Assembly: GCA_045540775.1 (NCBI GenBank)
Contig: JAZQHU010000052.1
Location: forward strand, 10,531 to 74,530
Direction: 5' to 3'
DNA length: 64,000 nt
From: Anaerovoracaceae bacterium
Lineage (GTDB): Bacteria > Bacillota > Clostridia > Peptostreptococcales > Anaerovoracaceae
In this document: one piece after another, positions 1 through 60,680 of the stretch
How the letters are laid out: each line of letters begins with the position of its first letter
Numbering within the stretch: position 1 is the first letter of the stretch
The notes under the pieces: model-generated
Databases searched by the model: none
What the model was told of the DNA's origin: nothing
Seen by the model: the letters and a program-made list of their open reading frames with translations, nothing else
Program-made: the position numbers and the translations under genes

Positions 1-679
1 CTCCGGTATCCTTGCGGTGCCAGCCCGGCTCCAGCACGATCTCTCTTATTACAAAATGAGAAAGTCTTGCAATGTCCGAGATGTTGAAGTTACGCCCGCT
101 CGTCTCGGTGATGCGGTCAACAGACGCCATCTCTATCTTCTCGCTGCGGCATATGTATGCTGCCGCATCATAGAGCTGATTGCCCGTCTCGGTGAATACA
201 CCTGTGACTCCGCGTCTTCTGCGCGGGCTGAAAAGATCATAGATGAGCCTGAGAGACCTGTCTCTCGTCCTCTCCTGATCCATCTGTGCAGCGTATATGT
301 AGCCCTGCTCCTTGACATTCGTCAGCTCGTACTTCTCGACTACCATCTCCTCGTACGAGGTGAACTCATTCAGCTTAATACCGACGGTTTCGGCGAATCT
401 CGTCTGCATCGGCCCGGTGACTCCGCCGCTGACTGCTTCCACAGTAGCAGTGTCCATGGCCACCAGACCCATTATCCACTCACCGAGAGCCTCGGACTTA
501 TAGTGGAATCCCGGAATATAGCTGCCCGGAGCAAACTCGCCCAGCAGCATCCTGCGGCCCTTTTTGCCGTCCCTTACAGGCAGCAGAAAAACCAGCACCT
601 GCCCGTCTGTGACTCTGTAAGCAGTGCCGCCGTCTTCCGTATAATGTACGTAGCCGCCTTTAAGATGGATCTGTTCCAA
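1..679 (-). CDS. ABC transporter, third gene of an NHLM-type bacteriocin export operon (N-terminal ~226 codons only; continues past window start)
   Basis: Absent from the ORF track (TTG start, no stop inside the window). Manual minus-strand translation from TTG at 679 is open to base 1: LEQIHLKGGYVHYTEDGGTAYRVTDGQVLVFLLPVRDGKKGRRMLLGEFAPGSYIPG... An AGGAGAG sits 7 nt upstream, and the start is 12 nt after the stop of the C39-ABC gene. The beta-barrel, cNMP-binding-like N-terminus is typical of the second ABC protein in HlyD/C39-ABC/ABC operons. The + ORF 17..814 is its antisense shadow. Confidence 0.6.
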   Translation of the reverse strand, partial: MEQIHLKGGYVHYTEDGGTAYRVTDGQVLVFLLPVRDGKKGRRMLLGEFAPGSYIPGFHYKSEALGEWIMGLVAMDTATVEAVSGGVTGPMQTRFAETVGIKLNEFTSYEEMVVEKYELTNVKEQGYIYAAQMDQERTRDRSLRLIYDLFSPRRRRGVTGVFTETGNQLYDAAAYICRSEKIEMASVDRITETSGRNFNISDIARLSHFVIREIVLEPGWHRKDTG

Positions 680-691
680 GTGATGTCTCTC

Positions 692-2836
692 CTACATATT
701 GCTGATAAGTCTCTGATAGTGTCCCGGTACCTTGGCGAGCTCTTCATGGCTGCCCCTCTGCACTATCTTTCCCTGTTCCATGACGATGATCTCGTCACAG
801 TCTCTGATGGCTGACAGTCTGTGCGCTACTATGATGCACGTGCAGCCTCTTCTCTTTATATTGTCGATTATCTGTTTCTCAACTATCGGGTCAAGAGCAC
901 TGGTCGCCTCATCCATGATGAGGATGCTCGGATTGCATACGAGCGCTCTTGCTATCTCAAGCCTCTGTCTCTGTCCTCCCGACAGGTTGCTGCCGCCCTC
1001 AGACAGCTCGTAGCTGTAGGCTCCCGGCTTGGTCGTGATGAAGTCGTGGATGCACGCATCCTTGGCAGCCTTGACCATGTCTTCCTTGCTTATGTACTTG
1101 TCCCACAGGGTCATGTTGTCCTTGATGGAACCCGAGAACAGTGTGATGGTCTGGCTGACCGTCGAAATGCTCGATGAGAGTATCTCCGGCGGGATCTGTG
1201 ATACAGGCACACCGTCCATCCTTATCTCTCCTGTCCACGGAACGTATAGCCCCGAGCACAGCTTGGACACTGTTGACTTTCCGCTTCCGGATGCTCCGAC
1301 GAAAGCTATCGACTGACCAGGCTCCAGATGGAAGCTGAAGTCCGAAACGATAGGATCCTTGAGGATGTCGTATCCGAATGACAGGTTGTCGAGCTCGACT
1401 TCACCCTGAAGCTTTTCCGAGAGGTCGGTGTACTCTGTTACCGAGTATCTGCTGTCCTGCTCGTACTTCATTATGTCGTTGACCCTGGCCATGTCTGCCC
1501 TGGTCGTCTCTATCTTCTGGATGAATGCCGCAACTGCAGTTACCGGCTGTGTGAACGAAGCCTGCAGCGATGTGTAGGCAATAAGTGAACCGGCTGTCAT
1601 GCTGCCTCTGATGACGAGAACACCGCCCGCTATCAGTACTAAGACATTGATGAGATTGTTCGTGACCTCCGGTATGGCGTTCAGCATCTCCTGGCGCATA
1701 CCCATGTTCTGCTCGGTGTTGATGCTCTTGGCATAGTTGCCCTGAAGCCTGCTGATGAACTCATTCTCGGTACCTGATGCCTTGAGTGTGCTCGTTATGC
1801 GAAGTCCGCTGAACAGCACGCCGATGAGCTTACTCTGATCCTGCTGAGCCTTCATCGACATGTTCGACAGGTACTCAGAGCTCTTCTTCATGGCGATCAT
1901 GTTGGCCGCTGTTATAACTACGATCAGCATCGTCAGAAGCGGGCTGTAGATCAGCAGTATGATGAGATACAGCGGAGCTACTATCGCATTCAGCATCACA
2001 TCCGCGAGGTCAGTTGTCAGGAACGTCGTGACCTTCTCATTGTTCTGTATCCTGTTGGAGAGGTCACCTGTGTACCTCTGGTCGAAGAATGACACCGGCA
2101 GCCTCAGCATGTGCCAGAGCAGCCTGTATCCCGACAGCATCGCCATCTTGTTCTGCAGCCTGTGCATCAGTCTGCCCCTGTAGTAGGTGAGCGCCGCCTT
2201 GAACACCATGGTCCCCAGCATCGCGAACAGAAGCGCAGTTACCCAGTCGTCATTGCCTCCGAGGAGGATGTCGTCAATGAACACCTTGGAGAATACCGGC
2301 ACAACGATACCCGGTATCATGAGGAAGAACCCGAGACACACAAGAGCGTTGACCGCGCCGAACTGGCCTCTCAGTCTCTGCAGCACGAAAGTGCGCATCG
2401 TCTCGCTTTCATGGCTCTTCTCAAATGCGTCTGTAGGGGCAAAAGTCAGGACTACACCCGTAAAGCAGTCGTCGATGTCCTCAACTGTCAGCTTGCGCCT
2501 TCCCTGCGCCGGATCGTTGATGTAGCATGCGTCGCCCTTGCGGCCTTCCCATACTACGAAGTGATTGAAATTCCAGTGTATGATACAAGGAACGGGCAGC
2601 TCAAACAGGCCGTCAAGGTCCTTTCTGTATCCGTGGACCTCGAGGCCGAATTTCTTGCCTGCCCGCATTATATTCTTCATATTGCAGCCGTCTCTCGAAA
2701 CACCCGTCTCTATACGGAGCTTCTCAAGCGGCAGACTTTTGCCAAAATACCCCAGCACCATCGCAAGTGAGGCCGCTCCGCATTCGGTGGCCTCCATCTG
2801 GTATACTGTTGGGGTTTTGACGTAAGATTTGCTCAT
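692..2836 (-). CDS. Bacteriocin-processing ABC transporter with active C39 peptidase domain
   Basis: 714 aa. N-terminal C39 domain with catalytic residues intact (QMEATECGAAS Cys, IHWNFNHFVVW His, INDPA Asp). TM domain follows. Walker A GASGSGKST, signature LSGGQRQR, Walker B ILIMDEATSALD. Confidence 0.9.
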   Translation of the reverse strand: MSKSYVKTPTVYQMEATECGAASLAMVLGYFGKSLPLEKLRIETGVSRDGCNMKNIMRAGKKFGLEVHGYRKDLDGLFELPVPCIIHWNFNHFVVWEGRKGDACYINDPAQGRRKLTVEDIDDCFTGVVLTFAPTDAFEKSHESETMRTFVLQRLRGQFGAVNALVCLGFFLMIPGIVVPVFSKVFIDDILLGGNDDWVTALLFAMLGTMVFKAALTYYRGRLMHRLQNKMAMLSGYRLLWHMLRLPVSFFDQRYTGDLSNRIQNNEKVTTFLTTDLADVMLNAIVAPLYLIILLIYSPLLTMLIVVITAANMIAMKKSSEYLSNMSMKAQQDQSKLIGVLFSGLRITSTLKASGTENEFISRLQGNYAKSINTEQNMGMRQEMLNAIPEVTNNLINVLVLIAGGVLVIRGSMTAGSLIAYTSLQASFTQPVTAVAAFIQKIETTRADMARVNDIMKYEQDSRYSVTEYTDLSEKLQGEVELDNLSFGYDILKDPIVSDFSFHLEPGQSIAFVGASGSGKSTVSKLCSGLYVPWTGEIRMDGVPVSQIPPEILSSSISTVSQTITLFSGSIKDNMTLWDKYISKEDMVKAAKDACIHDFITTKPGAYSYELSEGGSNLSGGQRQRLEIARALVCNPSILIMDEATSALDPIVEKQIIDNIKRRGCTCIIVAHRLSAIRDCDEIIVMEQGKIVQRGSHEELAKVPGHYQRLISNM

Positions 2837-5074: not shown

Positions 5075-6415
5075 ATGGAAAAGTTCTTCAAACTTCAGGA
5101 GCACGGAACTGATGTAAGGACTGAGATGATCGCAGGTGCTACCACGTTCCTGTCGATGGTCTACATCCTCGCAGTCAACCCGAGCATCCTCTCCGCATGC
5201 GGCATGGACAGCGCGTCCGTCTTCACTGCAACAGCAGTATCCGCAGCATTCGCTACACTCTGCATGGCATTCCTTGCCAATTACCCTGTAGCACTCGCAT
5301 CCGGCATGGGCCTCAATGCTTATTTTGCATTCACCGTATGCCCTATGGTAGGTACTGACAAGCCTTGGGAAGTTGCACTTGCTGCAGTACTCTGCGAAGG
5401 TATCGTTTTCATCCTGCTCTCGTTCACTAACTTCAGAGAGTCGCTCGTCAACGACATCCCGCAGAACCTCAAGTCCTCGATCTCCGTTGGTATCGGTCTC
5501 TTCATCGCTATCATCGGACTCAAGAACTCCGGCGCTGTAAGCGTTACAACTGAGAACGGCATTGCACTCGGAAACCTCGCTGACGCAGGAATCTGCCTCT
5601 CACTCGTAGGTATCCTGGTCATCGCTTTCCTTGCACACAAGGGAGCCAAGGGCGCTATCTTCTACGGCATCCTGATTACATGGGTACTCGGAATGATCGC
5701 TCAGGCTATCGGCTGGTATGTACCGGATCCTGAAGCAGGCGTATACAGCGTATATCCTAACTTTGCTATCAGCGGCGTCAAGATGGACTACTTCTTCTCA
5801 TTCGACTTTGAGTGGATCGGAGCTCACATCCTTGACTTCGTAGTAATCGTATTCTCCTTCCTGTATGTAGACATCTTCGATACAGTCGGAACGCTCATCG
5901 GAGTAGCTGCCAAGGCTGACCTCCTCGACGAGGACGGCAAGCTGCCTAACGCTAAGCAGGCTCTCCTCTCCGACGCTATCGGAACATGCGTTGGTGCTAT
6001 CTGCGGAACATCCACAGTAACATCCTTCGTTGAGTCTTCAGCAGGCGCTGCAGCAGGCGGCAAGACAGGACTGACTTCCGTAACAACAGGAATCCTCTTC
6101 CTCGTCTCCCTGATCCTGTCACCACTCTTCCTCTCCGTACCGGGCTTCGCAACAACACCTGCCCTGGTATACGTAGGATACCTGATGATGACACAGATCA
6201 AGAACGTACAGTTCGAAGGCGTACCGATGTCCGACGTCATTTCCGCATTCCTCGCGATCATCATGATGCCATTCACATCATCCATCGCAAACGGAATCAT
6301 GTTCGGAATCATCTCCTACCTCGTACTCAGAACACTCGAGGGTAAGGCTAAGGACGTTAAGCCTGTAATGTGGATCTCCGGAGTCCTCTTCGTACTCTAC
6401 ATGATCGTAGGCTAA
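5075..6415 (+). CDS. NCS2/AzgA-family purine (adenine/guanine/hypoxanthine) permease
   Basis: N-terminus MEKFFKLQEHGTDVRTEMIAGATTFLSMVYILAVNP is typical of PbuG/AzgA permeases, and the protein is polytopic. The start was moved to the ATG at 5075, which follows GGAAAGAAGG. Confidence 0.85.
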   Translation: MEKFFKLQEHGTDVRTEMIAGATTFLSMVYILAVNPSILSACGMDSASVFTATAVSAAFATLCMAFLANYPVALASGMGLNAYFAFTVCPMVGTDKPWEVALAAVLCEGIVFILLSFTNFRESLVNDIPQNLKSSISVGIGLFIAIIGLKNSGAVSVTTENGIALGNLADAGICLSLVGILVIAFLAHKGAKGAIFYGILITWVLGMIAQAIGWYVPDPEAGVYSVYPNFAISGVKMDYFFSFDFEWIGAHILDFVVIVFSFLYVDIFDTVGTLIGVAAKADLLDEDGKLPNAKQALLSDAIGTCVGAICGTSTVTSFVESSAGAAAGGKTGLTSVTTGILFLVSLILSPLFLSVPGFATTPALVYVGYLMMTQIKNVQFEGVPMSDVISAFLAIIMMPFTSSIANGIMFGIISYLVLRTLEGKAKDVKPVMWISGVLFVLYMIVG

Positions 6416-6416
6416 T

Positions 6417-6450
6417 CTGACATTGGGGACGGTTCTCATTGTCAGCTTTT
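6417..6450 (+). repeat. REP-like 27-bp hairpin element (copy 1), terminator-like
   Basis: CTGACATTGGGGACGGTTCTCATTGTCAG followed by CTTTT, 2 nt after the permease stop. Same element as at 46532, 46566, 49085 and 50906. Confidence 0.8.
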
Positions 6451-6611
6451 GTGTCAACTGAGACTGTCCTTTCTGACACACTATCGAATCAGAACAAAAC
6501 AAAACTTGCGGAATCGCTGTTCACGGTTCCGCAAGTTTTTTCTTTAGTTATTAACAGCTGCTGCCTGTCTTCTTTCCTGTCAGCTCTGCATGTAGCTTCT
6601 ATCCTGCAGCT

Positions 6612-46513: not shown

Positions 46514-46531
46514 GCTCCGCGCCTCCTGATA

Positions 46532-46592
46532 TGACAGTGGGGACGGTTCTCACTGTCAGCTTTTATGACAATGAGAACCGTCCCCATTGTCA
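46532..46592. repeat. Two inverted copies of the 27-bp REP-like hairpin element
   Basis: TGACAGTGGGGACGGTTCTCACTGTCA (46532..46558) and TGACAATGAGAACCGTCCCCATTGTCA (46566..46592). Confidence 0.85.
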
Positions 46593-49068: not shown

Positions 49069-49084
49069 TTATCATTTCAAAATA

Positions 49085-49111
49085 TGACAAAGAGAACCGT
49101 CCCCATTGTCA
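49085..49111. repeat. REP-like hairpin element copy
   Basis: TGACAAAGAGAACCGTCCCCATTGTCA. On the minus strand it directly follows the stop of the 49114 gene and is followed by TATTTTG. Confidence 0.8.
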
Positions 49112-49113
49112 GA

Positions 49114-50172
49114 TTATTTCTCAAGCAGCGCGAGTACTGCATCGCCGTGGATGGTCTCGTCATTCATGACCTCATTGACTTCAGGGAAGAAGTCGACGAT
49201 GTCCTTGTACTTCTCAGCTGCGTCGTACTCGCCCTTAGCGATGATCGGGTAGGTCTTGTCCCTGCCGAGCACCTTGTACATCATAGGCACGAAAATCGAT
49301 TTTGCCGGATTCACCCTGAGGTCCATGCCGGTGTACTTTTTGAATACATCAGCATGTCTCTGCTCGTCACCAGCGAGCCTCTCGAATGCAGCACGATCCT
49401 TCTCGTCCTTAACTACTCCGGCCAGCTTCTGATACATCAGCACCGCATCGACCTCACCCTGCTGAGCGGTTTTCAGAGCATCCAGGCAGTCCGGATCGAA
49501 CTCAGGAGCCGGCTCGCATACGCCTGTCTCCTCCATGATGATGTCCGCGATGCGAGTGCTGTGAACGATGTAGCTGCCGTGACCCTCGCCCGGGATGATG
49601 CGGAGTTTTGCACCGTCGATGCCCGCAGCGATTCTCTTTGTCTCTTCGAGCAAAACCAGATCCTTCTCGCCGGCGATGACGACTGTCGGCACTTTGATCT
49701 TCGCAAGATCGTCCGCCGTGATGTCAGGCTCAGCCATCATGAGATACAGCTTCGGGTCCTTTTTGACCTTGTACGCCATCTTGATGAACAGCTGAAGCGG
49801 CTTGCTGACGCCCTGCGGAGTCATGTTCGCGCCGCTCGTGATCAGCATACCGATCCTGCCCGACTTCATAGCCGCCAGAAGCCCGATGATTCCGCCATCG
49901 CTGAAGCCGTAGAAAATGACATCCTTCAAGTCGAGCTTGTCCATGAAAGCGATCATGTCATCGCGCATGTCAGTGTAGTGGAGCTCGTCCACCCTCGTGC
50001 TCGCGCCGTGGTCCCTCGAGTCTACCGTGTATACTGTGAAATGTTTTCTCAGATACGCGACCGCTTCCCGGAAGATCGTGTGATCTTCGCCGTTTCCGTG
50101 CACCATGATGAGCGGCCTTCCGCTGCCCGCAACTTCGTAATTCAGTCTGATTCCATTAACATCAATAAACAT
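49114..50172 (-). CDS. Alpha/beta hydrolase fused to a ferritin/rubrerythrin-like C-terminal domain
   Basis: 352 aa. N-terminus LIMVHGNGEDHTIF...YGFSDGG (nucleophile elbow). C-terminus QGEVDAVLMYQKLA...LAGDEQRHADVF (ExxH di-iron-like). Confidence 0.65.
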   Translation of the reverse strand: MFIDVNGIRLNYEVAGSGRPLIMVHGNGEDHTIFREAVAYLRKHFTVYTVDSRDHGASTRVDELHYTDMRDDMIAFMDKLDLKDVIFYGFSDGGIIGLLAAMKSGRIGMLITSGANMTPQGVSKPLQLFIKMAYKVKKDPKLYLMMAEPDITADDLAKIKVPTVVIAGEKDLVLLEETKRIAAGIDGAKLRIIPGEGHGSYIVHSTRIADIIMEETGVCEPAPEFDPDCLDALKTAQQGEVDAVLMYQKLAGVVKDEKDRAAFERLAGDEQRHADVFKKYTGMDLRVNPAKSIFVPMMYKVLGRDKTYPIIAKGEYDAAEKYKDIVDFFPEVNEVMNDETIHGDAVLALLEK

Positions 50173-50206
50173 TTTCAGTCTCCCCCATTGTCATCTTTCT
50201 GCACAA

Positions 50207-50578
50207 CTACTTGTCCTCAGGTATCACCTCAAGCCAGTACCCATCCGGGTCTGTGATGAAGTAGATGCCCATGTCGTGATTCTCGAATGCTATGCATCCC
50301 ATCTCTTCGTGAAGAGCGTGAGCCGCTTCGAAGTCGTCCACGTGGAATGCGAGGTGGAACTCCTCTTCGCCCAGGTCGTACTTCTGCGGATGCTCCGCAA
50401 GCCATGTCAGCTCGAGCTCAAAATCGCTCGTCCCATCAGTCAGATAGACGAGTATGAATGACCCGTCTTCCGCAGTCTTTCTCCTCTTCTCCTTCAGCCC
50501 GAGCGCCTTCTCATAGAAAGCCATCGATGCTTCCAGGTCGCTCACGTTCCAGTTAACATGCACCATTCTGTGTTTCAT
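50207..50578 (-). CDS. VOC-family protein / glyoxalase I-like
   Basis: 123 aa. HVNWNVSDLEASMAFYEKALGL...ELELTW...FEN pattern. Confidence 0.75.
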   Translation of the reverse strand: MKHRMVHVNWNVSDLEASMAFYEKALGLKEKRRKTAEDGSFILVYLTDGTSDFELELTWLAEHPQKYDLGEEEFHLAFHVDDFEAAHALHEEMGCIAFENHDMGIYFITDPDGYWLEVIPEDK

Positions 50579-50688
50579 ATTTTCTCTTCCTTCCCTTAGT
50601 CCGCCCCTCGGCTTGCACCGGTAAGTACCAGGTCAGTACTCACCATTATTATCTGAACTGACCGGCAACAGGTCAGCACTCAACATAA

Positions 50689-50871
50689 TTACCTGAACTG
50701 ATTGACAGTCTCATCGTATGCAAAACCAGCCGCGGCCAGTTCATCCACGATCTCATCCATGTCTGCATCGATCTCCGCGCACAGGTCAGACAGCGACTCT
50801 CCCCTGTCCCTCAGCATCATATTTATATAACTGTACAGGATCATCGGATCCTTAGGTGTCTTGTAACTCAT
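50689..50871 (-). CDS. DUF4250-like small protein
   Basis: 60 aa. PKDPMILYSYINMMLRD...LSDLC pattern recalled for DUF4250. Confidence 0.55.
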   Translation of the reverse strand: MSYKTPKDPMILYSYINMMLRDRGESLSDLCAEIDADMDEIVDELAAAGFAYDETVNQFR

Positions 50872-50905
50872 ATCTTTCCGACAACAGGGGCGGTTTCCCC
50901 TGTTA

Positions 50906-50932
50906 TGACAGTGGGGACGGTTCTCTTTGTCA
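50906..50932. repeat. REP-like hairpin element copy
   Basis: TGACAGTGGGGACGGTTCTCTTTGTCA followed by GCTTTT. Confidence 0.8.
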
Positions 50933-51267
50933 GCTTTTCCGGCATCGGAGGCGTCCCTGTCCCTATCTGTCAGCTTCTCCTTTTTTCTTTTACTACTACA
51001 ATAATTTTGTGGTTAATACTCCCAACATCCAGTTGGGATGTTATCCATCTTGTTGCTTAAGCTGTTAGAATGAGCAAGGCAATCGGTCTGACGTTTCCTT
51101 TCTTGGACTCCCGTCCGTAAATAAGTCTGTCAACCAGCCCTCATTCGCAGCGTTCGTTTTACGCAGGTTGAACTATCGCGTTCGTGTGAATATACCCAGT
51201 AGATTGAATAGGCAATGAGAGAAGCTGGCTTCGGCCATTGCTAATAACGATCAAAGGAGTATTTATC

Positions 51268-52491
51268 ATGTTGAACGCAGTTGGTATCGATGTTGCAAAA
51301 CGCAAAAGCACAGTCACGATCAGAAGACCTGGCGATGAGATCATTCTGCCTCCATGTGACATCCGTCATAATCGGTCCGAGATCAATGACCTTATCACCT
51401 ACATCAAAAGCCTCAAAGGCGAGACCAAGGTCTGTATGGAACACACCGGCAGATATTACGAGCCTATGGCTTATTGGCTTTCTAACGCTGGTATCTTCGT
51501 CAGTGCTGTCAATCCTATTCTGATCAAGGATTTCAAAGATGATGATTCCTTTCGGGCTCCTAAAACAGATAAGGCTGATGCAGCGAAAATCGCTCGATAC
51601 ACTCTTGACCGCTGGACCAAACTGAAGCAATATGGTCTTATGGACGAGATGCGTAACCAACTCAAGACAATGAACAGGCAATTCGGGTTCTACATGGATC
51701 AGAAGACTGCTATGAAGAACAATCTCATCTCTCTTCTCGATGAAACATATCCCGGAGCCAACAACTTCTTTGACAGCCCTGCTCGTGAAGACGGCCATCA
51801 GAAGTGGGTAGACTTTGTGTATACCTACTGGCATGTCGACTGCGTCAGGGGCAAGTCTCTTAAAGCCTTTACTGAACATTACCAGAACTGGTGCAAGCGT
51901 AAGGGCTACAATTTCAGTGTGCGAAAGGCCAAGGAAATCTATGAAAAGTCCTCCATCCTTATCGCCATGTTCCCCAAGGATGACAACACCAAGATGCTCG
52001 TACGTCAGGCTGTAGATGTCCTGAATTCAACCTCTGCTACAGTTGAACTGCTTCGCAGAGAAATGGATAAAGCAGCTTCTACACTTCCAGAATATCCTAT
52101 CGTCATGGCTATGGATGGTGTCGGTCCGACTCTTGGTCCTCAGCTCATGGCTGAGATTGGTGATGTCACCCGGTTTACCAAGAGAGGTGCCTTAACCGCC
52201 TTTGCCGGTGTTGATCCCGGTGGAGATCAGTCCGGAGATCATGAACGCAAGAGCAACCGCACCTCCAAGAAAGGATCTCCACACTTAAGAAAGACTCTTT
52301 TCGTGGTCATGGATGGCATTCTTAAACGTTCGCCAATTGACAATCCTGTCTATCTTTTCATGGACAAGAAACGCTCTCAGGGAAAGCCTTACTATGTCTA
52401 TATGACTGCCGGAGCAAATAAGTTCCTGCGCATTTACTATGGACGAGTCAAGGAATATCTCGAGAAGCTTGAACAATCCGAAGAGTCGTAG
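51268..52491 (+). CDS. IS110-family transposase/recombinase
   Basis: Start moved to MLNAVGIDVAKRKS (AAAGGAG upstream). N-terminal DEDD RuvC-like motif and C-terminal AEIGDVTRF...AGVDPGGDQSG domain. Element ends not determined. Confidence 0.9.
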   Translation: MLNAVGIDVAKRKSTVTIRRPGDEIILPPCDIRHNRSEINDLITYIKSLKGETKVCMEHTGRYYEPMAYWLSNAGIFVSAVNPILIKDFKDDDSFRAPKTDKADAAKIARYTLDRWTKLKQYGLMDEMRNQLKTMNRQFGFYMDQKTAMKNNLISLLDETYPGANNFFDSPAREDGHQKWVDFVYTYWHVDCVRGKSLKAFTEHYQNWCKRKGYNFSVRKAKEIYEKSSILIAMFPKDDNTKMLVRQAVDVLNSTSATVELLRREMDKAASTLPEYPIVMAMDGVGPTLGPQLMAEIGDVTRFTKRGALTAFAGVDPGGDQSGDHERKSNRTSKKGSPHLRKTLFVVMDGILKRSPIDNPVYLFMDKKRSQGKPYYVYMTAGANKFLRIYYGRVKEYLEKLEQSEES

Positions 52492-52573
52492 TCCCACTAA
52501 CAAATTCCCATTCCATTCCAATGTAGCGCATTGGCTTTATTCGATTGCCTGAAATCCAACCTGTATAAAATTT

Positions 52574-52999
52574 TCAAAATTCGTCAAAATCTGCTTGATT
52601 TTCTATTTGCAGACTTGTTTCCCTAAAGTCAATGCCAATTCGATTTCTGAGATATATGGGCATGTACTCCTGGCCATCCATTATTACGGGTATGAATTTT
52701 TCCTGATTGAATCGGTCATAAACCTCTGGGGTTATAATGGTTGTTTCTACGCCAACTCCACCTCGACGGTTATTTGCCTTCTCAGCATATGATTCGTCAC
52801 ACATAATAAGAACTTTATCCGCCTTCTCTATACTTTTTTCCATAAAGACGAACTTATCATATCCAGGCTTCAAATCCCACTGATCCAAAATAACATCAAT
52901 CCCATTGGATCTAAGCTTCTCAGCAAGACTTCTTATTTGATCAATATAATTATCGCATTTCCAACTGTATGAGATAAAAACAACTGGTGATGTATTCAT
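52574..52999 (-). CDS. Stand-alone TIR/SEFIR-like domain protein
   Basis: 141 aa. VFISYSW...GIDVILDQWDLKPGYDKFVFMEKSIEKADKVLIMCDESYAEKANNRRGGVGVETTII matches the bacterial SEFIR/TIR_2 pattern, including the GGVG-E motif. Confidence 0.75.
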   Translation of the reverse strand: MNTSPVVFISYSWKCDNYIDQIRSLAEKLRSNGIDVILDQWDLKPGYDKFVFMEKSIEKADKVLIMCDESYAEKANNRRGGVGVETTIITPEVYDRFNQEKFIPVIMDGQEYMPIYLRNRIGIDFRETSLQIENQADFDEF

Positions 53000-53089
53000 G
53001 TTTTAATCCATTCCTTTTTCTTTTTCAGCTTTCTATGATTTACTGCTTTATCCTTTGAATGCAAGTCAATGTGCACTATATGAATATTA

Positions 53090-56011
53090 TTATGTGTTCC
53101 AAAGTTCTTCTTTAGGTGTTAATAATCCAAATAGTATTTTTTGTTGATCTCTCGTATCTACATTATTCTTGATTGCCTCTTTTATATCTCCAATAATCTC
53201 CCTTTTATGGTCTATGAAGAAATGTTGGTATCTTTCTGTCTTAATAATATTCGTCCACATATAATTGCTGGTATCGACTTGAGAATAATCAAACTCACTC
53301 GGAGCGAGAAGGAACTGAATGCACTTGCTGTACCCAGCGTATTTTTTTAGTTCATATATGTTAAACTCCTCATATACTAAGTGTAGAATAATGAAATCAT
53401 CGATATAGGATTGTAGATAATCCGGAAAAGTTCGCATTCCAGGTTTCGTTATTCTTTCTATATGCAGCTTCTCTATCTCTGCTAAAATACGTTGCTCACA
53501 TTCTTTAGAAGGTTCAATGTATCCTTCGAAAATAAAATTAAAGATTGACTCTGTAGAAAGCATATTCACGCTTTTTGTCAATAATGCTGAAAAGCGATCC
53601 ATAGGAAGTGCCATCCTGTAAAACTCAACCGCTTCTAATCTTTCACTAACATCCTCTATCTGGCAAATTGAACTATATGCATTAGTTTTGAAGCTGTCGT
53701 CATATGCATCTCGTGTTAACCTAAAAACTTTTTGGAATGCCCATTTATTATTCGCAGGCACTTTTTTATGCAAGCCTTTAGCAATAACATTCTGTATCAA
53801 TTCTTTAGACAAGCTTGCAATTTCAGGAGATGCGGAAGGCTCAATTGATTTGAGAAGCAAAATAATCGCGTCTAATAAGTCTTTTGAGCAAATTATATCC
53901 TCAATCCAATTGTCGTTATTTTCGATTAGTTTATTAATCAGTTCTAATACTGCATTGGTCGCCTGTGTTCTTAGCTCGTTATCTACTGTTTTTGTAATAA
54001 GTATTGAAAATGAATATATATAGTTAACTATATATTTGTTGATGCATGTAACAGCACTCTCACATAGATTGCGAAATTTGCTACAAACATCAAGACCATC
54101 AACAAATTCAACATTAGAAACATGGTAATCATCAATCCATTTTTTGAGCGATTTGGGATCTGTATATTTCACAAACATATCCAAATCAGTTTCTTCAAGC
54201 GGATAATGCTCCCTATGTGTTCCTATTAATACAGTGTCTTCATCTTCAGTTACAGGAGAATATGAACATAGAATCGCCTTCAAATAATAATAGAGGTAAT
54301 TGTATACATCTTTATAATGATCTATTGGCAGGTAGTTCTCTTTAAAGAAGAAATAATACTCATATGCATATGATTGTAGTTTCCAAATATTTTGAAACGC
54401 ATGTCCGGTAATAAAGCCATTTATCTTGTACCTATAATGACTCTCTTGCTTTTCCAGCGTCTTTTGCATCGCTATTCGATCATCATTCTCAGAATGATGC
54501 AATTTATATAAGTACCCGGTAGCATTTTTATAATTAGCATTCAGCGATGCAAACAAGTCGGTAATTTCTTTTGTCAATTGCTCTGCTCGAGATAAGCCTA
54601 AGTATAGAAGTGCACTTCGTTTTCGCATTTTTGATAGCAAAACTTCAACAATATCTGCTTTGTCAGTTCCTTTATCCATCTCCGCGATTGTTTCATTTAG
54701 CGCTTCATATGTAGAGCCAAGCAGCACCATATAATACAGGCGAACCTCAGGGTTGCTGATTATTTCAAGGTCCTTTTGAAGTGAAGTAAAGTCGTTATCC
54801 AGGTATTTCTGGAACAATGTGTCGGTTTCTTTCTTCTCGAATAATGCAATACTTCGCTTACAGTGATATGCCTGTGCCTCAGTTATGCATGTTTTACCGA
54901 TAAGTTCCTGCAATGTGGAACTATTGTTATATGCTTTTTCAAAACTATTTAATGCTGCTTCATTTGAAAATACTAGTGTATTGCCCATATAATCCAGATT
55001 ATTGATGTTACAGTTCCTTTTTAAATCGATGTATGCAATGTGATTATATGCTGACAGCAGTTTATAATTGTCCTCTGTGTCTATTTCTGAAGGTATTACC
55101 TCTCTATACTTAGCATCATCAGAAATCAGTCGAAGAAAGGCATGCATTCTTCTCCCTTTATCATTTTGCAGCTTTGAGGATGCGTATTTATCTACATATG
55201 ATTCCTCTATAGTATTAGTTTCAACGACAATTATATTCTTTCGCGCCAGTCTCTCCTTTTCAAAATCAGATTCATCGTCTGAAACCAGAATAAAGCTCTT
55301 TGGGCGCTCCTCAATCTTATGTACTTCAGCAAAATAATTAATCCATCCAATTATCAAATTGAGATTATAATCACTCAAAGAATAGCCTACAAACATGAAT
55401 GTGTTATTGATAAGCAGAGATTTTATAAAAGTGCTTATAAGAATATAGTTATGTTCATAGTTAATATAGTCGCTTTCCTTCAGAACGATATTCTCTATAT
55501 CGTTAAAGTCTCCATGCATTTTAACAATATATCTGCTACTAGCTTTAGCTAACAAGTCCTGATCTTTTGCAATAACTGAATATAGTCCTGTATTAATTGA
55601 GTCGGATCTTTCAAGCAAATCATCATAATTTGTCGTGATTATATGTTGCGGTGCAATTCTTAAAATCTCATTGTCGATTTCATTAGGCTCTACATTTTTG
55701 TTAAGCACTTCGTTAACTAGTTCATAATATCCCCGCTCATCTTTCTGATAATAGTATTCAGGTATCCTAAGGAACTCCTCTTGTGTAAAGATGTTTTTTC
55801 TATTACATTCAGCCTTTTTTTGCGCATCACAGTTTTTACTATCTGCACATGTAGAACAGTGCTCATAATGAAGCTTATCCGCAAATTGAGCAATCAATCC
55901 AGACCAGGTCGGTAACCCAGAGTTTCTTGACACTCCAGCACCAACAAAAATAACTAACCGCCCACTATTTTTTGCTCTATGTATTTCTTTTAAAGAATCT
56001 GTCCAATTCAT
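53090..56011 (-). CDS. SIR2-domain defence protein, DSR2-like architecture (N-terminal SIR2_2 plus ~700-aa helical C-terminal domain)
   Basis: 973 aa. SIR2_2 motifs LVIFVGAGVS, ITTNYDDLLE, SSRYIVKMHGDF, FMFVGYSLSDYNLNLI. The long alpha-helical remainder has no other recognisable domain. Confidence 0.75.
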   Translation of the reverse strand: MNWTDSLKEIHRAKNSGRLVIFVGAGVSRNSGLPTWSGLIAQFADKLHYEHCSTCADSKNCDAQKKAECNRKNIFTQEEFLRIPEYYYQKDERGYYELVNEVLNKNVEPNEIDNEILRIAPQHIITTNYDDLLERSDSINTGLYSVIAKDQDLLAKASSRYIVKMHGDFNDIENIVLKESDYINYEHNYILISTFIKSLLINNTFMFVGYSLSDYNLNLIIGWINYFAEVHKIEERPKSFILVSDDESDFEKERLARKNIIVVETNTIEESYVDKYASSKLQNDKGRRMHAFLRLISDDAKYREVIPSEIDTEDNYKLLSAYNHIAYIDLKRNCNINNLDYMGNTLVFSNEAALNSFEKAYNNSSTLQELIGKTCITEAQAYHCKRSIALFEKKETDTLFQKYLDNDFTSLQKDLEIISNPEVRLYYMVLLGSTYEALNETIAEMDKGTDKADIVEVLLSKMRKRSALLYLGLSRAEQLTKEITDLFASLNANYKNATGYLYKLHHSENDDRIAMQKTLEKQESHYRYKINGFITGHAFQNIWKLQSYAYEYYFFFKENYLPIDHYKDVYNYLYYYLKAILCSYSPVTEDEDTVLIGTHREHYPLEETDLDMFVKYTDPKSLKKWIDDYHVSNVEFVDGLDVCSKFRNLCESAVTCINKYIVNYIYSFSILITKTVDNELRTQATNAVLELINKLIENNDNWIEDIICSKDLLDAIILLLKSIEPSASPEIASLSKELIQNVIAKGLHKKVPANNKWAFQKVFRLTRDAYDDSFKTNAYSSICQIEDVSERLEAVEFYRMALPMDRFSALLTKSVNMLSTESIFNFIFEGYIEPSKECEQRILAEIEKLHIERITKPGMRTFPDYLQSYIDDFIILHLVYEEFNIYELKKYAGYSKCIQFLLAPSEFDYSQVDTSNYMWTNIIKTERYQHFFIDHKREIIGDIKEAIKNNVDTRDQQKILFGLLTPKEELWNT

Positions 56012-56233
56012 GGTGATTATTACCTCATCAAATCAGCTTACTTTGTTTCATTCATAATATCTACAAATCTTTAGCTAAGCCTTTTTCTTTCATATTTCAC
56101 TTCGCCTTGACGGATCCTTTCTAATGATTCTATCGACACGACGAAACCCCTTGTTAAATCTTCGAATGCGGTTGATAAAAGCATCTTGTCGTCCATATTA
56201 TATTTCCAGCTTTATTTTTTAATACACTTACCG

Positions 56234-56746
56234 CTACAGGTATCTATCGAGCACTTGCAGAATATTGCTTTTATGCCTAGCATAATCTTCACTTCGAAGC
56301 TTTTGCTCTTCTACGCTTAGTATTTGTCTGCTGCTTCTAAACTTAATTGCCATTCTTGTTTTTTCATCTTTGTGTATTTGCGTTCCCCAAAATACATCTT
56401 CTACGTCTCTGCAAAACCATATCAAGTCATAACCCTGCTGTTCACAATACTGCTTGATTTCAACTAATTCCCGCATGTGAGTCGGATCTGCATCATATCG
56501 GTCTGTATCTATGCAGTAAATAACATGTGTAGGACCAATTACTTTATACTGCTTGGTCTGATCAGCAATCTTTTTCAGTATATCCTTTTTTCTGTAGTTG
56601 CCCTTTCCCTCGAAAAAGATAAAACGTATTCTAATGCTATTTCCCAAATTATAATAATTGAAAATCGTTTCGCGTATATATACTAAATCCGTTTCTGCCT
56701 TGGAATTAGTCTCTACGCAGAATAATAACTGTTTACTCATAATCAT
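56234..56746 (-). CDS. RloB-like / Toprim-like protein
   Basis: 170 aa. LLFCVETNSKAETD (Toprim Glu) and YCIDTDRYD (DxD). Its ATG overlaps the ATPase stop (ATGA). Confidence 0.6.
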   Translation of the reverse strand: MIMSKQLLFCVETNSKAETDLVYIRETIFNYYNLGNSIRIRFIFFEGKGNYRKKDILKKIADQTKQYKVIGPTHVIYCIDTDRYDADPTHMRELVEIKQYCEQQGYDLIWFCRDVEDVFWGTQIHKDEKTRMAIKFRSSRQILSVEEQKLRSEDYARHKSNILQVLDRYL

Positions 56747-58068
56747 TCACCCAGCACGCCCAAGAAATCTTCTGGCTCTATGTTGAAAGGCAAGTATTCG
56801 ATCATACCCTGTCTATACAGTTTGTCAGGAGCGAAATTGCCATTGGTTTTCCATTCTACGATTTGATTATCACTGGACAGAAAGGCTATTGACTTCTTGT
56901 TGCTCCTTAGGCTTGCCATTGGACTGGTATTGTGAGTAGTGAAGCAAAGTTGCCCTTTGCCGTATTGCATAAAGTAATCAATTATTTTGCTTAAATAGAC
57001 ATCATTAATGTTTGCGTCCATTTCATCAATAAAAGTGATTTCACCATCTGCAGCAGAATTGAGATAGTCGAATAGTTTTATAAGTTTGGTAATACCAGTA
57101 CTCTCAAAAACCGTGTCAACACGATAATCTCCGTAATTCATCAGAAGCTTACAAGCAAAGAATTCTCCTGCTTCTGTTTTATCTATGTCTATAGATTTAA
57201 GATCTCGTTTGAATAACTGAATAAATCGCTCGAGTTTTTTTATCTTCAATTTATAGTTCTCAAATAAATCCTTTGCTATCAGCTTTTCATTAGCATTTGC
57301 AAACCGCCCTACAGTGGAGACCATTCTGGTTATTTTGTCGAAAAAATCATCCGGATCTTTGGCTTCAAGAAGCTCTTTTTTCTGCAAATACAAGTCAGGA
57401 TCATCTTCACTAGCAATGCAAACGTTTATTTTTGCGGCAAAGAAATAAAGGTCAAACATCATCATTCTGAAAGGAGAAGACATATTATTTCTGAAGATAT
57501 CTTTACTATTTAGCAAGCAATTAATGGCCAAAGATTGCTTGCCCAATAGATTCAGTGACTCCCTGATAAGCCTGTCTTTAGTCTCTTCATCATCAATCAT
57601 TACGCTATTGATTTCTCCTTTAAGACATTCGAAGACTACTATTTCTTTTGCCCTTGTACCATTAAAACGACATTTAAGAGATTCCCGTTCAATTTCAAAA
57701 AGGCCCATAGGATTCAGACCGAGGCTGACCTCGTAACTATATATTCTGCTTTGAGCGTCAGTATAATAAATGAAATCGCTATTCAGCTCAATTCTCCTAG
57801 TCTTTTTATTGACCATAGCCTGAAGGTACTGCTGGTTTTTGGAGTCGTTAAGATAAGTGCTGTCTATAATAATGTTTCTGAGAACATCCATACCGACAAC
57901 TATAGCAGTCTTACCAGATCCGTTTTCACCATAAATAGCTTTGATTCTGTATTTTTCAGGATCAAACTGTTTATCTATAGTTTTTTTGTAAAAGTTAAGT
58001 TCTATAGTTTTTTCAAGGTTTTTGATTCCAGATACCTTGAAATTCAACAAATATACTTTCTCACCCAT
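56743..58068 (-). CDS. AAA_21/ABC-type ATPase, partner of the RloB-like protein (AbiL/OLD-like two-gene module)
   Basis: 441 aa. Walker A GENGSGKT, FIDEMDANI (Walker B), TTHN (H-loop). Confidence 0.7.
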   Translation of the reverse strand: MGEKVYLLNFKVSGIKNLEKTIELNFYKKTIDKQFDPEKYRIKAIYGENGSGKTAIVVGMDVLRNIIIDSTYLNDSKNQQYLQAMVNKKTRRIELNSDFIYYTDAQSRIYSYEVSLGLNPMGLFEIERESLKCRFNGTRAKEIVVFECLKGEINSVMIDDEETKDRLIRESLNLLGKQSLAINCLLNSKDIFRNNMSSPFRMMMFDLYFFAAKINVCIASEDDPDLYLQKKELLEAKDPDDFFDKITRMVSTVGRFANANEKLIAKDLFENYKLKIKKLERFIQLFKRDLKSIDIDKTEAGEFFACKLLMNYGDYRVDTVFESTGITKLIKLFDYLNSAADGEITFIDEMDANINDVYLSKIIDYFMQYGKGQLCFTTHNTSPMASLRSNKKSIAFLSSDNQIVEWKTNGNFAPDKLYRQGMIEYLPFNIEPEDFLGVLGE

Positions 58069-58203
58069 GGTTTACTCCTCCTTGATAACAATATATCAGC
58101 AGTATAAACAAAATGCAAGAAAAATACAATTTGTATTTTTCTTGCATCGATGGTTTGTTTTAACAACAATTGGAAGCTTGGCTATATTGTTTTATTTATT
58201 TCT

Positions 58204-58566
58204 TCACCAAAGCTGCCCCAACATCTGGTAAACGTCTTTTTTCCACCCTTCCTTTTTTGAACAAAATGGGCATCCATGACCTGCTTTGAGCGAATGAGGT
58301 CTCGGGTTCCATTCATAACCACATGTTTTGCATCTACATTTAATTCCAGTTTCTGTGTTTACATATTCACCAAGAATCTCGATGTTGGGATTAACGTTCT
58401 TCATAAGTTCAGTGAAGGACTTTGTATCTAGCTTTAATGTTCCCGCACATCTTGGACATCCGGAAGGTTTAGTTTTTATTATTGAAGTCGCTTTCGGATC
58501 CCAAACATAACTGCATTTTTTACACCTGCACTTTATTCTATCTTTGCTTCCTCTATAAGCCTCCAA
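58204..58566 (-). CDS. Tandem zinc-ribbon protein, probably 5'-truncated
   Basis: Two repeats: NPNIE..IKCRCKKCSYVWDP...GCPRC and NPNIE..IKCRCKTCGYEWNP...GCPFC. TTG start in the track. The same frame stays open upstream into the IS3 flank. Confidence 0.45.
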   Translation of the reverse strand: MEAYRGSKDRIKCRCKKCSYVWDPKATSIIKTKPSGCPRCAGTLKLDTKSFTELMKNVNPNIEILGEYVNTETGIKCRCKTCGYEWNPRPHSLKAGHGCPFCSKKEGWKKDVYQMLGQLW

Positions 58567-58651
58567 TGGTTCAATATTAGGATTTAACCTCTTGTCATAG
58601 TTGTTATCATAATGCTTGTTCGCAATACTTTTTTTAATGGAGGTAATGTAA

Positions 58652-59791
58652 ATGCAAAGAAAGCACTATACAGAAGAAGAAAAAAACGCAGTTATGTCTC
58701 AGTATGCTGCATGCGGCGGAGAGGTCAAAGCTATGCTGGCTGATTTAGGTATTCCTAAGAGCACCTTCAATCAATGGCTTCGCGAATACGATCTTCGCTA
58801 TGGATGTAAAAGTAAATATGATTTTAGTCCTAGAAATTTCCGCAATATTTTGCAACGAAATGACCATCTTGAGGATCTGCTTGCAGTTCTGAGCGATTCA
58901 TACTGTTCTCCTAACGCTCCTCTTAGGGAGCGTCTTAATGAAGCTGAGAAGCTATACAAAAACTATAATATTCACCTTGTATGTGAAGCGCTGAATATTT
59001 CGAGAGGCAGTTTCTACAATCACATCAAGAGGAACAAGCGCAAGCAAGCTTGGTATTATCTCAGAAGAGAAGAGCTAAAAAAAGAAATCCGCGACATCTA
59101 CTACGATACCTCAGAAATATATGGAGCAAGAAAAATGGCTGCTGCACTAAGGCAGAAGAACATAACAGTAAGCGTTCATCTTGTTCGAGAGCTGATGGCT
59201 GAAATGGATCTGATAAGCATACGAGTTTATTCTAACTACCTCTACCAGAAAGAATTTGGAAAATACAAGAATCACGTTAATCAGTTCTTCGAGGCTGATG
59301 CTCCGAATCAGATCTGGGTCAGCGATGTAACTCAGTTCAAGTACAAGGAATACTATTATTATATTTGTGTAATAATAGACCTATTCTCCCGGAAAGTCGT
59401 TGCCTGCTGTGTAGGGAGAAACAATACCACTTATCTCGTAAAAAGGACCTTCCGGGAGGCGTATAACGATCGTATCCCCGGTGAAGGTCTTATTTTTCAT
59501 AGCGACCGAGGTTCAAATTACAAAGCGGAATCATTCAGAATACTATTGGCCTCAAAGAATGTAACGCAATCCTTCTCAAGAGCACATATGCCATATGACA
59601 ATGCTGTCATGGAGAATTTCTTCGGCTCATTGAAAAAAGAGGAACTGTACAGATGGCGATATCGGTCAGAGCGTGAGCTCAAAGAGCGTATCAGGGAGTA
59701 TGTAGACTTCTACAATAACGATCGCCTGCACGAAAAACTGCAGTACAAGACACCTGCACAAGTTGAAGAAGAGTATCTCAACAGTCTGTGA
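58652..59791 (+). CDS. IS3-family transposase (single fused ORF)
   Basis: 379 aa. N-terminal HTH, then rve DDE core: WVSDVTQF, HSDRGSNY, DNAVMENFF. Element ends not determined. Confidence 0.9.
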   Translation: MQRKHYTEEEKNAVMSQYAACGGEVKAMLADLGIPKSTFNQWLREYDLRYGCKSKYDFSPRNFRNILQRNDHLEDLLAVLSDSYCSPNAPLRERLNEAEKLYKNYNIHLVCEALNISRGSFYNHIKRNKRKQAWYYLRREELKKEIRDIYYDTSEIYGARKMAAALRQKNITVSVHLVRELMAEMDLISIRVYSNYLYQKEFGKYKNHVNQFFEADAPNQIWVSDVTQFKYKEYYYYICVIIDLFSRKVVACCVGRNNTTYLVKRTFREAYNDRIPGEGLIFHSDRGSNYKAESFRILLASKNVTQSFSRAHMPYDNAVMENFFGSLKKEELYRWRYRSERELKERIREYVDFYNNDRLHEKLQYKTPAQVEEEYLNSL

Positions 59792-60200
59792 ACAGGCAAA
59801 ATGAACATCGGATATTTGTATTGATTGTTCGGTGTGATAGCCCCGTGGGTTCGAATTCCGGTTCTTTGCAGTTTTGAAACGCATTTTACGATTTTATTTG
59901 ACCCCGAAAGGTTCTCCGAATCACATGAACCCCGCTGATTGCAACGAAAAACCGGGGTCCTCACGAACTTGAGGGTTCGTATAGGTTACCCCGGTGCAGA
60001 CTCGAAGAAGTCAGGAGCGTACAAACGTTGAAATTCCAAGGAGGAAAAGCGCCGTCCACGTTTGTACCCAGCTCTGTACCCAATTAACTATTATGTAAGT
60101 AGCAATATAATTGTGTCATAATATTTCACCAGATGAACTCTCCGCTTTTACCGCCCGATTTATTGAGGAGGTGTATATCATCAAGGCAAAGGATTACATC

Positions 60201-60680
60201 CTATTTAACAGTAACTGTATTCAAATAACGAACTGCCCTCTTGCTGTTAGGGTCTCCGAAAACAACCAGTTGCGCCCCCTGGCCTCCTTCAATTCCTTCG
60301 ATCACTTCTCCGCCATCTGTGAGCGCAACGTATACTTTTCCGCTCTCAAGGATCTCTGCACCGGTAAGATCTGCAGAATAATTATCCTCTGAAGTAACAG
60401 TGACCAGAGTGTCATCAGCTATCTCGACCCCATTATCACTGAGGATGCTGCCGAGTTCAGCTCCTGTATATTCATGATGAGATATCTCGCCTTTGCCATT
60501 CACAAGATCACCTTCGAAAGATTGGGCATCAATATTATCCCAGGCAACAGTTATCTCCTTATCGCCCATCGTTATTACCATGCCGGGTTTATCTTCGCTG
60601 TTTCCTCTGTTCAATAACGCCAGTATTCCTGCAGCGATCACCAGGACCGCGATCAGCACTGCAATTATCTTCTTCTGCAT
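60201..60680 (-). CDS. Membrane-anchored molybdopterin-oxidoreductase-fold (YedY-like) domain protein (tentative)
   Basis: 159 aa. N-terminal TM/signal segment and a beta-rich domain (GAELGSIL...VTSEDNYSADL...VYVAL...LVVFGD). Confidence 0.4.
   Translation of the reverse strand: MQKKIIAVLIAVLVIAAGILALLNRGNSEDKPGMVITMGDKEITVAWDNIDAQSFEGDLVNGKGEISHHEYTGAELGSILSDNGVEIADDTLVTVTSEDNYSADLTGAEILESGKVYVALTDGGEVIEGIEGGQGAQLVVFGDPNSKRAVRYLNTVTVK

Follow-up and report, generated by a model that had tools for sequence, protein, structure and literature searches.

Introduction

DSR2 forms tetramers, is switched on by the tail-tube protein of phages and is inhibited by DSAD1. It is the helical C-terminal domain of DSR2 that binds the tail-tube monomer. 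The protein from Bacillus subtilis 29R (PDB 8k98, 8wy8, and 8z18), 1005 amino acids (aa) long and with a SIR2 domain at its N-terminus, makes up a single-gene system found in defence islands and mobile DNA; its NADase activity is lost on mutation of N133 and H171 (PMC10981675). A further single-gene defence system, bSEFIR, has been validated experimentally (bioRxiv 10.1101/2022.05.11.491447) and is reported to deplete NAD+ by means of the SEFIR domain at its N-terminus (bioRxiv 10.1101/2024.02.11.579819). It is itself the effector, and not a signal generator as in Thoeris, the type I form of which pairs a TIR protein (ThsB) with a SIR2-SLOG protein (ThsA) and is defined by the co-occurrence of both genes. 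We analyze here a stretch of 64,000 nucleotides from an Anaerovoracaceae bacterium (assembly GCA_045540775.1, contig JAZQHU010000052.1, positions 10,531 to 74,530; hereafter the window), in which a gene coding for a 973-aa sirtuin is followed by a 141-aa open reading frame (ORF) coding for a TIR/SEFIR-like domain. In a previous sequence-only reading, this pair had been considered either as a stack of two defence genes, independent of each other, within an island or as a Thoeris-like hybrid in which the TIR protein gates the sirtuin.

The locus is very probably a defence island acquired by horizontal transfer, some 7.4 kb in size and bracketed by insertion sequences (IS), in which unrelated modules are stacked and which contains no two-gene system. 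The modules are an AbiL-like pair, a predicted DSR2-family NADase and the probably dead remnant of a SEFIR gene. As the small SEFIR gene turns out to be a stump cut by an IS, we are dealing with an ordinary defence island and not with a new two-gene signalling system. The kinds of genes present, a single-gene NADase defence of the DSR2 type and a pseudogenised gene of the bSEFIR type, are known, and the locus adds little new biology as such. Its remaining value lies in an under-annotated clostridial DSR2-like clade, in a rare SEFIR variant with a winged helix-turn-helix (wHTH) and in the mosaicism of the sirtuin C-terminus.

The 141-aa ORF: A SEFIR Gene Cut Short by an IS110 Element

The two ORFs lie on the same strand and 90 bp apart, and the smaller one codes for a TIR/SEFIR-like domain with a GGVG-E motif; on both points the sequence-only reading was right (Table 1). 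In the 141-aa protein, Pfam recognizes TIR_2 (2e-18, 67.5 bits) marginally ahead of SEFIR (1e-17, 64.8 bits), and the motif is present as RRGGVGVE. The PADLOC bSEFIR profile matches the protein at 2e-62 over profile positions 35-167 of 412, and its sequence aligns with that of the BcSEFIR crystal structure (5y8e/5y8f) at 3e-36. To these proteins and bSEFIR from Bacillus sp. NIO-1130 (Millman et al., 2022) it is strongly matched in the N-terminal SEFIR domain, and the conserved D39/D42 region and the GGVG-E motif are present.

The description of the small ORF as a stand-alone, SEFIR-only protein had to be abandoned. Its closest relative is a 229-aa protein of Eubacterium pyruvativorans (P0001), the product of an intact allele, to which it is 99% identical over residues 1-128. 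The native part of the ORF (52616-52999) shows 99.5% nucleotide identity to positions 10001-10384 of L002, one of two E. pyruvativorans assemblies (L001 and L002) that contain the same island with an intact SEFIR allele. In BLASTN alignments, homology to this allele breaks at window position 52614, that is, at codon 129 of the SEFIR gene. Copies of an IS110-family element that are about 86% identical to the one in the window, present in at least two flanking contexts (L163, L166, and L167 in one, L169 in another), align to exactly 50994-52615. On the plus strand the junction reads ...CTATTTGCAGACT followed by TGTTTCCC, with a CT dinucleotide common to the IS end and the target. Taken together, the end of the homology, the end of the IS110 element and the bases at the junction show that the ORF takes its final 13 residues (129-141, SLQIENQADFDEF) and its stop codon from the IS110 element. 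The 141-aa ORF is the 5' stump of the 229-aa gene, a pseudogene made by an IS and not a native gene.

Neither the 101 codons lost from the gene nor two small ORFs that follow it in the intact allele were found anywhere in the window, the far side of the IS110 element included (BLAST-type searches). The DNA to the left of the element is GC-rich chromosome. Since this left flank is not the remainder of the SEFIR gene, either the insertion was not a simple one or a deletion or rearrangement came after it; a deletion or an IS-mediated rearrangement, rather than simple insertion, would have made the present structure. Missing from the truncated ORF are the last SEFIR helix, the winged helix and, between the two, the conserved linker. 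The lost helix holds the family-wide GYExLLRxIY motif, followed by KPxLG, and coverage of the Pfam TIR_2 profile drops from 122 of 122 positions in the intact allele to 111 of 122 in the window ORF. With this helix gone and its own end encoded by the IS, the ORF encodes only part of the domain, to which 13 foreign residues are appended. Interrupted by IS110 at codon 129 and deprived of the helix that closes its fold, the stump is most likely inert. Truncation by an IS can thus yield seemingly "minimal" domain-only ORFs that mimic novel architectures.

The interrupting element has the features of the IS110 family, namely a transposase with the DEDD and Transposase_20 domains, a length of about 1.6 kb, a CT dinucleotide shared with the target, a conserved 5' non-coding region and no obvious terminal inverted repeats. 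The 5' non-coding DNA extends over about 270 bp (50994-51267). When plasmids were searched with the IS110 DNA, only distant IS110 elements were recovered (65-72% identity). Similarity to such distant elements (65-66%; Selenomonas and Subdoligranulum plasmids) begins at 51042, about 200 bp ahead of the transposase start. IS110-group elements encode a bridge/seek RNA at the position of this non-coding stretch, for which no Rfam match was obtained. Exact-protein look-ups of the window flanks (the IS110 transposase with two start choices, a 123-aa VOC-like protein and a 159-aa protein) returned no record.

The 973-aa Protein Is a Predicted NADase of the DSR2 Family

The sequence-only reading had ascribed to the larger protein SIR2_2 NADase motifs followed by helical repeats, a single-gene architecture of the DSR type, and had seen no SLOG or Macro domain. 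This was essentially borne out. Pfam matches SIR2_2 at 2e-23 (residues 123-260). Among proteins of solved structure, B. subtilis DSR2 (8k98 and many others) comes closest by sequence, at 3e-40 when the single protein is used as query and at 1e-52 when its family profile is compared with the PDB; both matches are confined to the SIR2 domain. Sirtuin residues N128 and H166 align with the catalytic N133 and H171 of DSR2 and are invariant across 116 homologs. Beyond SIR2, neither SLOG nor Macro domains were detected by Pfam or PADLOC.

An AlphaFold2 model built from the sequences of these 116 homologs (mean pLDDT 89.1, pTM 0.79) is mostly helical after the SIR2 domain. When it was compared with the PDB by means of Foldseek, the top 44 matches were all DSR2 chains, with E-values down to 1e-26 and TM scores of 0.71-0.73, whether normalised by query or by target, over about 1050 aligned columns at 18-19% structure-based identity. 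As this match extends along the full length, the SIR2, middle (MID) and C-terminal sensor (CTD) domains are all present and in the DSR2 order. The whole C-terminal part superposes on DSR2 MID and CTD, and there is no additional ligand-sensing module. Judging by its modelled fold, and with a length close to that of DSR2 and both catalytic residues in place, the sirtuin belongs to the DSR2 family, complete although divergent and no textbook member, and is a predicted NADase.

Several observations weigh against this assignment. The C-terminal 500 residues are colinear with those of DSR2 but the sequence alignment is insignificant. The equivalog model for Dsr2 (NCBIfam NF041819) reaches 75 bits, far short of its cut-off of 1400, and covers model positions 8-266 of 1215; the PADLOC Dsr2 model is matched at positions 12-272 of 1222, that is, along the N-terminal 270 residues only. 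The curated models reach, in other words, only the SIR2 domain of the sirtuin, a stretch that models for ThsA and PDC-S25 match as well. With about 1200 positions, these curated Dsr2 models may represent a DSR2 lineage other than that of the 1005-aa B. subtilis protein. In addition, Y71 and D188, residues of the DSR2 tetramer interface, are not conserved and align with C52 and S180 of the sirtuin. Because C-terminal similarity to DSR2 is insignificant, the trigger may be something other than the tail-tube protein.

By analogy, we consider it highly likely that the sirtuin works as DSR2 does, binding by the sensor domain leading to SIR2 NADase activity, collapse of NAD+ and abortive infection. 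Whereas the fold and the catalytic residues are found in the protein itself, its trigger, oligomeric state and activity are read across from the DSR2 literature. The 973-aa protein would be a self-contained sensor-effector of the DSR2 type. Its helical C-terminal domain would bind a phage structural protein, as that of B. subtilis DSR2 does; binding would allosterically switch on the N-terminal SIR2 NADase, which would use Asn128 and His166, and the resulting depletion of NAD+ would abort the infection.

Two peculiarities of the sirtuin deserve mention. A family-conserved insertion with four cysteines (C52, C55, C61, and C69; residues 52-69, nucleotides 55805-55858) lies within the SIR2 domain and has no counterpart in B. 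subtilis DSR2, the Y71 of which aligns to C52. Local pLDDT is about 60, and the insertion may be a zinc knuckle. The second peculiarity is the mosaic structure of the gene, seen when the window allele (53090-56011) is compared with that of L002 (6988-9909). Synonymous divergence between the alleles (pS) is 0.016 in residues 1-300, corresponding to SIR2, but rises to 0.26-0.30 in residues 651-973; of 69 amino-acid differences, 53 are located in residues 651-900. This pattern suggests a recombinational exchange of the gene's 3' third, which includes part of the predicted sensor domain. A mosaic, divergent C-terminal third would fit an exchange of sensor specificities between strains.

Neighbours of the Sirtuin Family

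More than 570 full-length relatives of the sirtuin were found, 961-999 aa long and 34-40% identical, mostly in gut Clostridia. This clostridial clade with the DSR2 fold (>570 clusters) escapes the cut-offs of the curated Dsr2 models, and a hidden Markov model (HMM) made for the clade would improve defence annotation. Neighbouring genes were surveyed in one genome per species, which gave 80 loci, 56 of them with a full-length sirtuin homolog; among these 56, at least 600 bp of downstream sequence was available in 48 and at least 600 bp upstream in 51.

With an HMM built from the relatives of the small protein, no SEFIR gene was found next to the DSR2-like sirtuin in any of the 56 loci. Clustering of the neighbours, together with a Pfam scan of the 150 nearest, revealed no recurrent partner, no family being present more than four times. 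Genes that do recur are those for recombinases, HTH proteins and integrases, with a methylase and a helicase resembling type III restriction-modification systems farther out. Such neighbourhoods are typical of defence islands and mobile DNA. The lack of a conserved partner, as judged from gene content, gives the family the status of a putative single-gene system.

In one of the 56 loci (L032), the SEFIR HMM weakly matched the gene downstream of the DSR2-like sirtuin. It was rejected as TIR/SEFIR, since this gene (L032:11431-12354) encodes a DUF4062 protein (Pfam 6e-12). According to a 2026 preprint, the DUF4062 domain is a NADase ("NIR"). L032 is a single case of a second NAD-targeting gene stacked beside a DSR2-like gene.

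The Intact Allele and the SEFIR Family

In the intact 229-aa protein, the SEFIR domain is joined by a linker to a winged helix. Its AlphaFold model (pLDDT 84.7) places the last SEFIR helix at residues 127-141 (pLDDT >90) and the wHTH at residues 169-223. Superposition on BcSEFIR (5y8e/5y8f) gives target-normalised TM scores of 0.82-0.88 over 143-157 columns, reaching beyond the point at which the window copy is truncated. The wHTH shows weak matches (E 1e-3 to 1e-5) to HTH_24, MarR_2 and Crp-like and CasR/Csa3-like profiles, all of them under the curated cut-offs. Downstream of the intact gene, L002 has two overlapping ORFs of 124 and 117 aa (L002:10662-11368), those that are deleted in the window. 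They have no match in Pfam or PADLOC and no similarity to bSEFIR C-terminal domains, and may be part of the same system as the 229-aa gene. The possibility that the 229-aa gene and both ORFs derive from a frameshifted 480-aa bSEFIR gene was considered and rejected, because five full-length bSEFIR proteins show no similarity past about residue 210 in any frame (tblastn and blastp).

Scanning of metagenomes with the SEFIR alignment yielded 80 loci, of which 39 measure 8 kb or more. Most SEFIR ORFs in these loci are 475-495 aa long and have the canonical bSEFIR architecture, with a large C-terminal domain, in contrast to the 229 aa and winged helix of the intact E. pyruvativorans allele and to the window copy, cut at codon 129 and deprived even of its last SEFIR helix. 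Twelve shorter complete ORFs were found: eight are frameshifted, their C-terminal part lying in another frame, three are truncated and one (L130) is the tandem partner of a full-length gene. The truncated ones (L110:7938-8570, L111:4240-4872, and L112:6852-7484) represent the same allele in three metagenome samples, which stops at about residue 205, has no continuation in another frame and is 98% identical to a full-length protein (L102); this is a second instance in which a SEFIR gene, although truncated, persists in gut bacteria. SEFIR genes in tandem occur in two loci (L108:6509-8948 and L130:5500-7777). L108 has a canonical 492-aa bSEFIR gene and, directly after it, a gene for a 316-aa SEFIR-wHTH protein, with no sirtuin as neighbour. 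This locus confirms the wHTH reading frame of the intact allele and is the only other one found with the SEFIR-wHTH short form. In none of the 80 loci do the flanks of the SEFIR gene contain a SIR2 or DSR2-like gene.

Alternative Explanations for the Gene Pair

Could a nucleotide signal made by the SEFIR/TIR protein, or direct contact with it, gate the DSR-type SIR2 effector? Both genes point the same way and lie next to each other, the 90-bp spacer has no terminator-like site on its minus strand, and both domains belong to NAD-consuming defence chemistry. Type I Thoeris likewise has a TIR-superfamily gene beside a SIR2 gene, and ThsA models match the sirtuin at 2e-29, in the SIR2 domain only. 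The adjacency is shared by the intact-allele strains L001 and L002, again without a terminator-like site between the co-oriented genes, so that a link specific to this lineage is conceivable, a point that counts against regarding the genes as unrelated. A promoter scan of the pair gave one weak match (53102-53075), no better than in shuffled sequence, and provides nothing firm on co-transcription. Nevertheless, the adjacency is seen only in one E. pyruvativorans island; co-occurrence, the property by which Thoeris is defined, is absent both among the 56 sirtuin homolog loci and among the 80 SEFIR loci, and it is for want of conserved co-occurrence, a refuting condition that the sequence-only reading itself had set, that the Thoeris-like hybrid fails. 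The DSR2 MID and CTD fold accounts for all of the non-catalytic sirtuin, leaving no SLOG (type I), Macro (type II) or other ligand-pocket domain. The small gene is of the bSEFIR type, not ThsB, and its closest relatives are single-gene systems that deplete NAD+ themselves and are not signal generators. In the window, moreover, the sirtuin ORF has remained intact, whereas the SEFIR gene beside it is destroyed. We regard a gated pair as extremely improbable.

If the genes are independent, as the sequence-only reading had proposed as its other option, both might still be functional, the 141-aa product acting as a NADase or as a ThsB-like TIR protein. Stacking and the lack of a conserved partner agree with independence, which to this extent stands; what probably does not stand is the second working gene, since this SEFIR copy is broken by IS110. 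The points against an inert stump are that it has kept the start codon as well as D39, which is conserved, and the GGVG-E85 motif, and that the event is recent, with 99.5% nucleotide identity in the part kept, so that residual activity is conceivable; TIR-only proteins, besides, exist in other systems. Yet helix 127-141, the GYExLLRxIY...KPxLG element and the C-terminal domain are gone, the TIR_2 match is reduced as described above, and native relatives are about 480 aa long, or 229-316 aa in the gene's own subfamily, short forms elsewhere being frameshifted or truncated. An active stump is unlikely. Turning to the intact-allele strains, the 229-aa and 316-aa (L108) proteins could represent an undescribed short SEFIR-wHTH variant of bSEFIR, possibly together with the 124- and 117-aa ORFs, that senses nucleic acids by way of its wHTH or cooperates with or regulates the sirtuin, and of which the window holds an inactivated copy; we judge this decidedly unlikely. 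More specifically, the SEFIR-wHTH protein could, by means of its winged helix, control transcription of the island or of the upstream sirtuin. The winged helix is confidently modelled and has the weak HTH_24, MarR_2, Crp-like and CasR/Csa3-like matches already mentioned, but none of these reaches its curated cut-off, the sole other member of the subfamily adjoins a canonical bSEFIR gene instead of a sirtuin, and elsewhere the sirtuin family has no such neighbour. A regulatory role is very improbable.

The Island and Its Other Genes

The features of the locus are listed in Table 1.

Table 1. Coordinates of the features identified in the window.
Feature	Position	Strand	Evidence
DSR2-family sirtuin gene, 973 aa	53090-56011	-	ORF, Pfam and fold
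SIR2 NADase domain of the sirtuin (predicted)	residues ~1-280, nt ~55172-56011	-	Pfam SIR2_2
MID and helical C-terminal sensor domain of the sirtuin (predicted)	residues ~281-973	-	DSR2 fold match
Spacer of 90 bp, sirtuin stop codon to SEFIR start codon	53000-53089	-	ORF coordinates
141-aa ORF, whole	52574-52999	-	ORF list
Native part of the SEFIR-wHTH gene, codons 1-128 (SEFIR domain without last helix)	52616-52999	-	
IS110-derived end of the 141-aa ORF, codons 129-141 (SLQIENQADFDEF) and stop codon	52574-52615	-	
IS110-family insertion sequence, ~1.62 kb	50994-52615	+	Pfam and related copies
IS110 transposase gene	51268-52491 or 51238-52491, by choice of start	+	Pfam DEDD_Tnp_IS110 and Transposase_20
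AbiLi-like AAA ATPase, 441 aa	56743-58068	-	PADLOC AbiLi 1.6e-31, Pfam AAA_21
Partner of the AbiLi-like ATPase, 170 aa (4-bp overlap with the ATPase gene)	56234-56746	-	
Zinc-finger protein, 120 aa, DUF4379/CapR-homology	58204-58566	-	Pfam
IS3-family transposase gene	58652-59791	+	IS3 domains (Pfam)
AT-rich acquired island (IS110 left, IS3-family right)	52616-59999		BLASTN and GC profile

The block had been noted to be AT-rich, and the GC profile agrees: GC content is 0.33-0.37 over approximately 52500-58500 versus 0.50-0.59 in the chromosome to the left. The island is common to other E. pyruvativorans assemblies at 95.8% identity. When L001 and L002 were compared with the window by BLASTN, a single high-scoring segment pair of 7.4 kb was obtained, running from 59999 to 52614, and gene order in both is IS3, zinc-finger gene, AbiL-like pair, 973-aa sirtuin, 229-aa gene and the 124- and 117-aa ORFs. 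Outside the two IS elements (59999-60000 and 50993-50994), the island's flanks are wholly unlike those that it has in L001 and L002. There, the island is flanked by genes for a type III glutamine synthetase and an asparagine synthase, which is not the case in the window (comparison with L001:1-3000). Either the island has a different chromosomal context in the window than in L001 and L002, or the chromosome was rearranged at IS copies.

The 170-aa partner of the AbiLi-like ATPase has a single weak, sub-threshold Pfam match (Phage_YunG-like, E 0.005) and none in PADLOC or NCBIfam. Together with this unclassified partner, the ATPase probably makes up a two-gene defence module of its own. The zinc-finger protein, encoded between the AbiL-like pair and the IS3 element, has two treble-clef repeats and is annotated at 149 aa in L001, against 120 aa in the window. 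An Rfam scan of 50000-60500 produced one match only, at chance level and far under its gathering score. Finally, the window has, between genes, at least four copies of a REP-like element that measures about 40-60 nt and contains a hairpin (ACAGGGG...CCCCTGT). They are located at 6412-6469, 46525-46583, 49078-49116 (inverted) and 50899-50938, the last at a distance of 55 bp from the IS110 element's left end.

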